DNA of 64,000 nucleotides. It comes from Escherichia phage MN01. The position numbers and the translations under genes were made by a program. The DNA lies in sequence record MT129652.1. One strand, given 5' to 3'. This document shows positions 13,083 to 15,393 of this stretch, one piece after another (position 1 is the first letter of the stretch; the number at the start of each line of letters is the position of its first letter). The notes beneath the pieces were generated by a model that was not told the DNA's origin, did no database searches, and saw only the letters and a list, made by a program, of their open reading frames with translations.

Positions 13083-13643
13083 ATGATTATTGAAACAACT
13101 GAATTGTTTGGCGAACTGACCGCTGAAGTAGTTAATAATGCAATTGAGCTTTGTCAAGAAGACGATAAAATCGTACTGACTATCCAAGATATTAAACCAC
13201 TTTATGATTTAAAGGTTTTGGATAAAGATGAATATCTTAGCGGTAGTTTTAGTGGTGTATTTGATATTAACGATGATGTATGTGCTCGCATTTATAAGAA
13301 CGATGGCGGGTTTAATATTGAAACAGATGAAAAATGCCTGAGCATTAGTAATTCTGATAAATTCTTTAAATGTATTTTCAAACTGTTCCAGGAAGAATGC
13401 AAGCCAGAAGTCGAATGGAAAGTCCCTGGACAAGATGCACTGATTCGCTCTAGTGAAACCTTTGACGGTGACGAAGAGGAATTGAATTATAATACCGAAC
13501 TGACTGTTGTTCAACATGACGGTCGTGACCAACTATGTATTACCCAAGTACACGATGGTTTTAATGAAGTGGTATTTACTAAAGACGAGCTAAAAGTTTT
13601 AGTCTCTTATCTGAACTCTGTTATCCCAACTATGAACTCTTAA
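13083..13643 (+). CDS. Hypothetical acidic protein
   Basis: 186 aa ORF. Confidence 0.55.
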   Translation: MIIETTELFGELTAEVVNNAIELCQEDDKIVLTIQDIKPLYDLKVLDKDEYLSGSFSGVFDINDDVCARIYKNDGGFNIETDEKCLSISNSDKFFKCIFKLFQEECKPEVEWKVPGQDALIRSSETFDGDEEELNYNTELTVVQHDGRDQLCITQVHDGFNEVVFTKDELKVLVSYLNSVIPTMNS

Positions 13644-13653
13644 GGAAAATATT

Positions 13654-14106
13654 ATGATTATCAATTCAAACTCTTGGCACGTTAAATTACACGACCGTTT
13701 TTATGACCGTCATTCTCGACCACACTCTTTGTGTGCTTATTTCTGGAAAATGATTTGGGCTTGTTTTGCTTGTGCTATTGTTGCAGGTAGTACGCTTTTT
13801 GGATTAACTGTTGCAGGCGCTGGTGTATTAGAACATTTCTTTGTATTAAGTACTCCTGTTCTGTTGAGTCTAGGGTTTGTTTTAGGGTTGGCTGCAATAG
13901 CTCTTATTATTGCGCTATCCATTGGTTTGGCATTAGGTGCGATGAATTTACACGCATGGTATGATGCACGTATAGAAGAAAAGGAATGGCAACGTATTCA
14001 AGCTGAGCGGGAAGGCCGAGAAATTAAAGAAAATATCGTTATTCAATACATTAAAGCTCGTAAATCTAAGATGTGCCCGGTAATCCATTTTGAGGCGAAG
14101 AAATGA
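13654..14106 (+). CDS. Hypothetical membrane protein
   Basis: 150 aa; two or three hydrophobic helices (MIWACFACAIVAGSTLFGLTVAGAG; VLLSLGFVLGLAAIALIIALSIGLALG). Confidence 0.5.
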   Translation: MIINSNSWHVKLHDRFYDRHSRPHSLCAYFWKMIWACFACAIVAGSTLFGLTVAGAGVLEHFFVLSTPVLLSLGFVLGLAAIALIIALSIGLALGAMNLHAWYDARIEEKEWQRIQAEREGREIKENIVIQYIKARKSKMCPVIHFEAKK

Positions 14107-15113
14107 GAACAGTTATGAAAGGCTACTTCGGTAGCCATCTTTATGGGACAAGTACTCCGGAATCTGATGTCGATTTTAAAGAAATCTTTGTTCCTCATCC
14201 GCGAGATATCCTGCTCGGAACCGCGATGAACCATACCAACCTGAACACAAATAACACGGCTACCAAAAATACAAAAGATGATGTTGACCATGAACTTTAT
14301 AGCCTGAAATATTTCTTTAAACTGGCAGCCGAAGGTGAAACCGTTGCCCTGGATATGATTCACACACCGGCTGACCTGGTAGTCAAATCCGATTTACCAG
14401 ATGTATGGAAGTTTATTCAAGACAACCGTTCGCGGTTCTATACAACTAACATGAAAGCCTATTTGGGGTATGTCCGTAAGCAAGCTTCCAAATATGGTGT
14501 TAAAGGTTCTCGATTGGCTGCACTGCGTGGTGTACTGGCAATCGTTAACCAGATTCCTGAACAGTGGGTCGACTATCAAGAAGGAATCCCTGATAAACTT
14601 CGTCGTACTAAGGTAGAAGATATCAAACATCGACTTCCTGAAAACGAGTTCTGTGAATGGGTATTCCATAACCATGAGAAAACAGGTCCTCAAACGTTCT
14701 ATACTGTCCTCGGACGTAAGTACCAAACTACTCTGTCATTGGTCGAGCTTAAGCAATCTCTGAATAAACTTGATGCCGAATATGGCGAACGTGCTCGTAA
14801 GGCTGAAGCTAATGAAGGTATTGACTGGAAAGCACTGAGCCATGCATATCGTGCAGGGTATCAATTGATGGAAATCTACCAAACAGGTGACTTGGTATTC
14901 CCATTGCGTGAAGCCTCTATCATTAAGCTGATTAAAGCTGGTGAATTACCATTTAAAGAAGTTCAAGAACTTCTTGAAGATACTGTCGATTTAGTTGAAG
15001 TTCTGGCCATCCAGGCTGCTAAGAATGGTATGCCTGCGAAGGTGGACATGAAGTTCTGGGACAAGTTTGTTGAAGAGGTATACCTTGACAACCACAATTC
15101 CTATTATCGTTAA
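14103..15113 (+). CDS. Pol-beta-superfamily nucleotidyltransferase-fold protein
   Basis: GS-x10-DxD motif (GSHLYGTSTPESDVDF) and downstream acidic VALDMIH; 336 aa with helical C-terminal domain. Confidence 0.6.
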   Translation: MRTVMKGYFGSHLYGTSTPESDVDFKEIFVPHPRDILLGTAMNHTNLNTNNTATKNTKDDVDHELYSLKYFFKLAAEGETVALDMIHTPADLVVKSDLPDVWKFIQDNRSRFYTTNMKAYLGYVRKQASKYGVKGSRLAALRGVLAIVNQIPEQWVDYQEGIPDKLRRTKVEDIKHRLPENEFCEWVFHNHEKTGPQTFYTVLGRKYQTTLSLVELKQSLNKLDAEYGERARKAEANEGIDWKALSHAYRAGYQLMEIYQTGDLVFPLREASIIKLIKAGELPFKEVQELLEDTVDLVEVLAIQAAKNGMPAKVDMKFWDKFVEEVYLDNHNSYYR

Positions 15114-15309
15114 CAAAGAAATCAAGGTCTTCTTATCATACGGAAGACCTCATAAAGGCCGCCGATGGTATCTCGAAGCAGTCTGTCGAGAAACTGGTCG
15201 TCGAATCAATATCAAGTACACATGCAAACCAACACCCAAGCAAACTCGCAGGTTTGCTAATTGGGCTATCAATAATATCAGATTCCATAATTTTTGGAGT
15301 GCAATCTAA
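15067..15309 (+). CDS. Hypothetical basic protein (uncertain)
   Basis: 80 aa ORF overlapping the previous gene by 47 nt; no alternative in-frame ATG; ends just before a terminator. Confidence 0.3.
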   Translation: MLKRYTLTTTIPIIVNKEIKVFLSYGRPHKGRRWYLEAVCRETGRRINIKYTCKPTPKQTRRFANWAINNIRFHNFWSAI

Positions 15310-15332
15310 GGACCCTTCGGGGTCCTTTTTTA
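15309..15332 (+). terminator. Rho-independent terminator
   Basis: GGACCCTTCGGGGTCC hairpin followed by TTTTTT. Confidence 0.65.
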
Positions 15333-15393
15333 TTTTAAAGGTGTACAAACTTGTCTCTGTTGATGCATAATGAATTTTTACTAAGGAGCCATT

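Follow-up and report, generated by a model that had tools for sequence, protein, structure and literature searches.

Escherichia phage MN01 carries, within the 64,000-nucleotide stretch of sequence record MT129652.1 that was analysed here (the window), a gene for a 336-amino-acid (aa) protein which is, by sequence, the ortholog of T4 NrdC.11 and a member of a long clade of the RlaP family (PF10127) of Pol-beta nucleotidyltransferases (NTases); it overlaps an upstream gene for a 150-aa membrane protein. RNA repair as a viral counter-defence was first exemplified by the T4 Pnk/Rnl1 pathway, and RloC-type nucleases, which excise a nucleotide after cutting, have been proposed to defeat this pathway. 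We think it probable, with reservations, that proteins of the NrdC.11 type are template-independent RNA 3'-end nucleotidyltransferases supporting the repair of nuclease-damaged tRNA together with phage Pnk and Rnl1. If NrdC.11 does restore the lost nucleotide, the third enzyme that the pathway lacks would have been found, and it is present in roughly 1,500 sequenced T4-like phages. The finding is real and already known, because both the family and the T4 ortholog have been described before; the repair idea itself has been published, as a prediction and through in vitro work on bacterial enzymes, and the window thus adds another ortholog and no new kind of system. The modest additions made here are that the phage clade's own bacterial relatives, besides the short RlaPs, lie in RtcB/Pnkp/Hen1 operons, that long RlaPs occur in tandem with short ones and in one case fused to a short one, and that the membrane neighbour is common yet dispensable. 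The remaining interest lies in the role of NrdC.11 in T4-like phages, in the pairing of long and short forms and in the recurrent membrane neighbour.

The 336-aa protein is matched by PF10127 with 48.4 bits (E 1.3e-12; the gathering cut-off is 23), over residues 8-135 only, which correspond to positions 25-143 of the 249 in the model, and by PHROG 388 'nucleotidyltransferase' (E 9e-131). Because of these two matches, its GS-x10-DxD signature is more than a chance motif. Identity to T4 NrdC.11 is 80.7%, and homologs occur in 1519 phage records, mostly of T4-like phages infecting Escherichia, Klebsiella, Shigella, Aeromonas, Acinetobacter and Vibrio, together with one Caulobacter phage, Cr30. 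In a megablast search the locus likewise matched T4-like phages: it is 95% identical to that of Escherichia phage vB_EcoM_RZ and 87% identical to that of Shigella phage SP18, in which the gene is named nrdC.11. The first-pass annotation, made by a model from the letters alone, had recognised a Pol-beta-like nucleotidyltransferase, and this is borne out by the PF10127 match and by an intact, conserved acidic triad; the remote homology search that it had proposed led to the nucleotidyltransferases of PF10127 and PHROG 388, and the structure prediction to a confident NTase model. Its failure to assign the protein to a characterised T4 gene is superseded by the correspondence to nrdC.11, a protein which a preprint had already placed in the RlaP family (10.64898/2025.12.29.696909). 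As regards nomenclature, 'thioredoxin' is the name given to many NrdC.11 orthologs in GenBank and UniRef, and 'HNH homing endonuclease' that given to one; these labels look like annotation errors taken from the neighbouring nrdC and mobD names.

The catalytic motif reads G10 S11 HLYGTSTPES D22 V D24. Its conservation was assessed among relatives from a scan over 1.84 billion cluster representatives, which gave 3212 sequences at E <=1e-3 and 830 at E <=1e-30; 72 full-length relatives with 33-50% identity were aligned (alignment A1), and every one of these diverse homologs also matches PF10127. G10, G15, S21, D22, D24, Y131, R230, K243, H247, R250 and P267 are invariant in all 72, S11 is present in 71, and S11, D60, D62 and D84 are each at least 90% conserved. 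Position 62 is occupied by Asp in 67 sequences and by Glu in 4, and hhalign places D62 opposite D72, the invariant third Asp of canonical short RlaPs. The acidic residue that the first-pass annotation had postulated downstream of GS-x10-DxD can thus be identified as D62, and the triad on which that annotation hung its case is kept in the aligned relatives (G10, D22 and D24 in 72/72, D62 as D or E in 71/72).

The AlphaFold2 (AF2) model of the protein, with a predicted local distance difference test score (pLDDT) of 94.1, consists of an N-terminal NTase sheet, one beta strand of which carries D62, followed by a helical domain whose helices comprise residues 213-235, 242-261, 271-278, 284-307 and 316-335. 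The invariant R230, K243, H247 and R250 of this second domain are candidate NTP- or RNA-binding residues. Ahead of these helices lies a beta-rich insert, residues 154-208, which is confidently modelled, varies in sequence across the long clade and belongs to the half that cannot be aligned to short RlaPs; it may serve to recognise the substrate. Among solved structures, NTases of the kanamycin nucleotidyltransferase (KNTase) kind come nearest in fold, and in BFVD a structure search brought up nothing but further 'nucleotidyltransferases' of phages and giant viruses. Searches of the PDB sequences with the protein itself, with the long-clade profile A1 and with a short-RlaP profile (A3) found no relative.

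The relation to the canonical short RlaPs is confined to the catalytic half. Comparison by hhalign of A1 with 14 canonical short RlaPs (A3) gave a probability of 93.9% (E 1.6e-7) restricted to residues and columns 4-131, leaving the C-terminal half, insert included, unaligned; since only these residues align, in agreement with the partial Pfam match, membership of RlaP rests on the catalytic half. The presumed substrate-binding half of the long clade is, as far as the alignments tell, diverged. Short RlaPs have been characterised by Carruthers, Fatma and Huang (bioRxiv 2025, 10.64898/2025.12.29.696909), who studied two Pseudomonas enzymes encoded between rtcB and rtcA. These append one or two nucleoside monophosphates (NMPs) or deoxynucleoside monophosphates (dNMPs) at the 3'-OH of RNA, favour a cleaved-tRNA mimic's 5' half as substrate, use Mn2+ or Co2+ by preference and leave DNA and protein unmodified; moreover, they partly restored the aminoacylation of a tRNA missing one anticodon-loop nucleotide. 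The crystal structure of PfRlaP, from the same work, has an N-terminal NTase domain and a C-terminal helical domain, the terminal helix of which folds back against the NTase domain. The last element in the AF2 model of the MN01 protein is a long helix (316-335), in the half that hhalign and Pfam leave unaligned to RlaP. The same authors assigned T4 NrdC.11 to a separate cluster of the PF10127 sequence similarity network (SSN), cluster 5, and called its function unknown. Earlier, Iyer et al. 2021 (PMC7824862) had found the distribution of RlaP in jumbo phages to mirror that of RNA ligases and had predicted that RlaP puts back nucleotides lost to RloC-type nucleases; later papers cite Burroughs and Aravind 2016 for the prediction of a nucleotide-restoring role for the family.

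The Pol-beta fold is shared by enzymes with other substrates, and two further functions have to be weighed against these comparisons. The protein could transfer a nucleotide to a protein or to a small molecule, as DrrA, MntA and the KNTase/ANT enzymes do, for example by AMPylating a host defence protein or a toxin. We regard this as improbable: the structural matches concern the generic fold, with Foldseek template modelling (TM) scores <0.4 and none at E <=1e-3; E. coli proteins were not labelled by the characterised RlaPs (10.64898/2025.12.29.696909); the MntA model, with its cut-off of 60 bits, scores just 15.8 and covers no more than residues 8-25, which hold the GS...DxD motif; and no HEPN or toxin gene is adjacent. 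Nothing was found in favour of the toxin/antitoxin link raised in the first-pass annotation. The same annotation had offered interference with nucleotide signals, and a cyclic-nucleotide synthase of the cGAS/DncV type, or an enzyme interfering with host nucleotide second messengers, would share the Pol-beta catalytic motif, which is the sole point in its favour. No Pfam or PADLOC match to the CD-NTase, Mab21 or SMODS families was obtained, the top structural neighbours include no cGAS-like structure, and searches with PADLOC and NCBIfam gave sub-threshold matches to the N-terminal motif only, so that such a function appears extremely improbable.

When one genome of each prokaryotic species was scanned, 156 relatives of the long protein came up, of which 80 loci were kept; in these, ORFs were called, neighbours clustered and representatives checked with Pfam. 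The kept bacterial and archaeal relatives are 34-52% identical to the phage protein over its full length, C-terminal half included. RtcB, Pnkp, Hen1 or Ro/TROVE is encoded within 6 kb of the long gene in 14 of the 80 loci (Pfam E 2e-132 for RtcB, 2e-172 for PNKP_ligase, 3e-112 for Hen1_L and 4e-37 for TROVE). Judging from gene frequency, chance would bring well below 1% of genes to within 6 kb of such a gene present in one or two copies, and the repair neighbours would therefore be strongly enriched. Among operon-like neighbours, the commonest Pfam models are AAA_33 (kinase), generic methyltransferase models matching Hen1 proteins, PNKP_ligase, RtcB and Hen1_L. In 14 loci a short canonical RlaP, with a full-length PF10127 match (E 1e-51 to 1e-81), directly follows the long gene. 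The order is RtcB-RtcA-long RlaP-short RlaP-Hen1 in a Nitrosospira locus (L039, 3709-9155) and Hen1-Pnkp-long RlaP-short RlaP in another (L062, 2088-7802), and in a third (L078, 5979-7781) the long and short forms are fused into one 601-aa protein. On the strength of this adjacency and fusion, it can be argued that the two forms are not redundant and may work together; the bacterial pair may even be two enzymes, or a heterodimer, that divide the work within one machine. Most bacterial loci have no conserved neighbour, and many of the contigs are short.

Repair of tRNA is thus suggested by membership of the RlaP family, by the intact and conserved active site, by an NTase-plus-helical fold in a confident model and by close bacterial relatives encoded in RNA-repair operons, all of which are direct observations; what we infer is that the substrate is RNA, how many nucleotides it gains, which metal is used and that Pnk and Rnl1 cooperate with the enzyme. 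D22, D24 and D62 would hold two divalent ions (Mn2+ in characterised relatives), and one or two NMPs would be moved from NTPs, without a template, to the 3'-OH of a broken RNA, the chief acceptor presumably being a tRNA's 5' half after cleavage in the anticodon loop. The addition would make up for the trimming by RloC-type anticodon nucleases, which excise nucleotides, after which Pnk and Rnl1, encoded elsewhere in the phage genome, could reseal a usable tRNA. The closest complete genome, that of vB_EcoM_RZ, does encode Rnl1 and Pnk (HAD_PNKP plus AAA_33), far from the NrdC.11 locus, and, host genus by host genus, Rnl1 and NrdC.11 are almost equally numerous among phage records; these matching counts are consistent with joint use, and fit common descent equally well. 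Short RlaPs were found in 86 phage records, mainly of Pseudomonas jumbo phages, with no Escherichia phage among them, and a search of the window for a second, short RlaP found none. RNA 3-prime end repair, one of several options listed in the first-pass annotation, agrees with the family assignment and with the gene neighbourhoods of the bacterial relatives.

The same evidence for nucleotidyl transfer to RNA would serve an enzyme that extends RNA 3' ends for another purpose, be it the rebuilding of the 3'-CCA ends of damaged tRNAs or the tailing of host or phage RNAs for decay or stabilisation. Pseudomonas RlaP also labelled rRNA-sized RNA and full-length tRNA and showed little NTP specificity (10.64898/2025.12.29.696909), the diverged C-terminal half and the beta insert of the long clade could redirect the choice of substrate, and the coexistence of long and short forms in bacteria implies separate roles. 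Set against this, the protein has no Pfam match to the families of CCA-adding enzymes or poly(A) polymerases (PF01743, PolyA_pol), Cid1/TUT-type enzymes are returned only at a Foldseek probability <0.1, and the bacterial neighbours are the break-sealing RtcB, RtcA, Pnkp, Hen1 and Ro, not factors of RNA decay or maturation. Such a purpose is accordingly rather unlikely.

Several points weigh against the tRNA-repair account itself. The main uncertainty is that the biochemistry comes from short RlaPs of cluster 1a, which can be aligned to this protein over residues 4-131 only; given the diverged C-terminal half and the beta-rich insert, substrate choice could differ. About 54 of the 80 bacterial loci have no RNA-repair neighbour within 6 kb, and the tandems and the fusion suggest a distinct role for the long form, which is the only one that the phage keeps. 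Further, neither rnlA nor pseT lies next to the gene in the phage, and the co-occurrence of Rnl1 and NrdC.11 in the Straboviridae may only reflect shared ancestry. Finally, viable genome-reduced T4 mutants have lost the segment nrdC.11-mobD.3 (PMC9825161); the gene is therefore dispensable on the laboratory host, a result which fits an accessory counter-defence role and yields no positive phenotype.

The upstream membrane protein belongs to PHROG 944 (E 1.7e-53) and has homologs in 778 phage records. It is hydrophobic over about residues 25-102, and AF2 models it with low confidence (pLDDT 63.5, predicted TM score 0.29) as a two-helix hairpin; the 'multi-pass' of the first-pass annotation thus probably amounts to two. 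Pfam matches to Oleosin and to holins fall below threshold and reflect hydrophobic composition. The soluble N- and C-termini are better conserved than the hydrophobic core (alignment A4), with the patterns MIINxNSWHxKLHDRFY...RPHSLCAYFWK and ...IQYIKARKSKMCPVIHFE, and W8, H9, C27 and C141 are kept even in the homologs of Klebsiella phage Marfa and Acinetobacter phage Konradin, which are only 22-27% identical; this pattern hints at a metal or ligand site built by both termini.

The association of the two genes varies among phages. The membrane gene lies directly upstream of nrdC.11 in SP18, RB69, fPS-2 and others, and one or two genes upstream in Konradin and Marfa; it is not beside nrdC.11 in Cr30 and Vibrio phage D525, is not found in the 9-kb stretch around nrdC.11 in T4, and has no homolog in any of the 80 bacterial loci. 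In T4 (locus L002, 3238-4017), its slot is occupied by the HNH homing endonuclease gene mobD (PMC2988022), which overlaps the nrdC.11 start, and insertion of mobD appears to have replaced it. The membrane protein is thus best read as a frequent, co-transcribed syntenic neighbour in T-even relatives and not as a required partner of the NTase: the translational coupling through an ATGA overlap that had first drawn attention to the pair holds in MN01, whereas obligatory pairing does not. That the two form a functional pair in phages, as a membrane-tethered enzyme adding nucleotides or oligonucleotides or, at the extreme, as a Hailong-like or anti-Hailong module in which the NTase product controls the membrane protein, seems quite improbable.

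The extreme form of that proposal can be judged on its own evidence. The NTase would then be a HalB-like template-independent oligonucleotide synthase, paired with the membrane protein as in Hailong or making oligonucleotides as decoys to keep the HalA channel of a host closed. Tan and colleagues reportedly placed the priming tyrosine of HalB at its C-terminus in 2025. HalB primes de novo synthesis on its own conserved tyrosine (PMC13434031), and the candidates in the MN01 protein, Tyr334 and Tyr335, are not conserved: their columns hold mostly gaps or other residues, and a Tyr anywhere in the last six residues is present in 32 of the 72 aligned relatives. HalB is 13% identical to the protein, and the resemblance is confined to the fold: in Foldseek it comes out on a par with KNTase and 3c18 (E about 2e-2, TM 0.22-0.35). 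Neither sequence nor profile comparison gave a match to HalB or HalA, and the membrane-protein profile finds no HalA in the PDB sequences at E up to 10. The 9-kb stretch around T4 nrdC.11 is without the membrane gene, as are the bacterial relatives, which lie in RNA-repair operons, and the low-confidence model of the 150-aa hairpin has no evident channel or crown domain. A HalB-like activity is on these grounds very improbable, and tRNA repair remains the reading that we prefer.

The features of the locus are collected in Table 1. The two reading frames and their overlap, as described in the first-pass annotation, were confirmed in coordinates and strand; the ATGA joins the stop of the membrane gene (14103-14106) to the start of the NTase gene, ahead of which stands the Shine-Dalgarno GAGG at 14092-14095. 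The SP18 record begins nrdC.11 four codons later, at Met5; Met1 is the better start, because residues 2-9 make up the conserved strand beta-1 in the alignment and in the AF2 model. Just past the NTase start, inside the codons of the GS motif, lies a hairpin that has a perfect stem of 6 bp and TTCG as its loop (GGCTAC-TTCG-GTAGCC, 14121-14136, + strand); it is not kept in SP18, and was therefore set aside as probably due to chance.

Table 1. Features of the nrdC.11 locus of phage MN01, in window coordinates
Feature	Position	Strand	Basis
150-aa membrane protein, PHROG 944	13654..14106	+	ORF, PHROG, hydropathy, alignment, low-confidence AF2
GAGG Shine-Dalgarno and ATGA overlap	14092..14106	+	sequence; overlap kept in SP18
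336-aa nucleotidyltransferase, T4 NrdC.11 ortholog, RlaP (PF10127) long clade	14103..15113	+	ORF, PF10127, PHROG 388, AF2
Codons of G10-S11-x10-D22-V-D24, Pol-beta NTase motif with the first two metal-binding Asp	14130..14174	+	sequence
Codon of D62, putative third catalytic carboxylate, on strand E61-67	14286..14288	+	alignment, hhalign, AF2
Residues 154-208, beta-rich insert of five strands between helices of the C-terminal half	14562..14726	+	AF2 secondary structure
Residues 213-335, C-terminal helical domain with R230, K243, H247, R250	14739..15107	+	AF2 helices, A1 columns
Small basic ORF, DUF7279 / PHROG 8921, which overlaps the NTase gene at its 3' end	15085..15309	+	ORF; the ORF list gives a TTG start at 15067
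Hairpin resembling an intrinsic terminator, AAGGACCC-TTCG-GGGTCCTT, then T run	15308..15337	+	consensus scan and sequence

The gene at 13083-13643 (+ strand), which ends 10 bases before the membrane gene and probably shares its transcription unit, is like T4 y05I/MobD.1 (PF24449 and PF24448, 'putative transcription factor'). At the other end, the small basic ORF matches DUF7279 (E 2.3e-08) and PHROG 8921 (E 2.3e-39), the match beginning at residue 8; it contains no internal ATG, and probably starts at TTG 15085, behind a GAGG at 15075-15078. It is the final gene before the terminator, and the equivalent stretch carries no annotation in the SP18 RefSeq record. The terminator hairpin itself spans 15308-15327 and, with its T run, is the likely end of the transcription unit. 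No tRNA genes were found in the window.

Among the known systems compared, the ANT(4') kanamycin nucleotidyltransferase (1KNY) and the NTase-like 3C18 share 8-12% identity with the protein at TM <0.4 and belong to other Pfam families; the ANT enzymes, moreover, act on small-molecule antibiotics. HalB of Hailong (PDB 9dbh) is an oligodeoxyadenylate synthase working with the membrane channel HalA, which combines an ion-channel domain with a DNA-binding crown domain, and the 150-aa neighbour in MN01 does not resemble it. The RlaPs of P. fluorescens and P. aeruginosa (SSN cluster 1a) share with NrdC.11 the PF10127 assignment, the GS...DxD...D core and the succession of an N-terminal NTase and a helical domain, and relatives of both types occur in RtcB/RtcA operons; they differ in that NrdC.11, with its 336 aa, belongs to cluster 5 and the long clade, whereas the short RlaPs beside bacterial long genes have 254-289 aa, and in that the MN01 gene is not adjacent to a ligase gene and its product has a diverged C-terminal half with a beta-rich insert. 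The bacterial long RlaPs have the same invariant residues as the MN01 protein, but are often paired or fused with a short RlaP and encoded in RNA-repair operons, whereas the phage gene stands alone with a membrane gene upstream. The closest counterpart is T4 NrdC.11: although T4 has mobD directly upstream, where MN01 has the membrane gene, and nrdC.10 downstream, where MN01 has none, the two proteins, both of PHROG 388, are of identical length and align throughout, and their genes share a neighbourhood between the tk/mobD.x and the nrdC.x genes.

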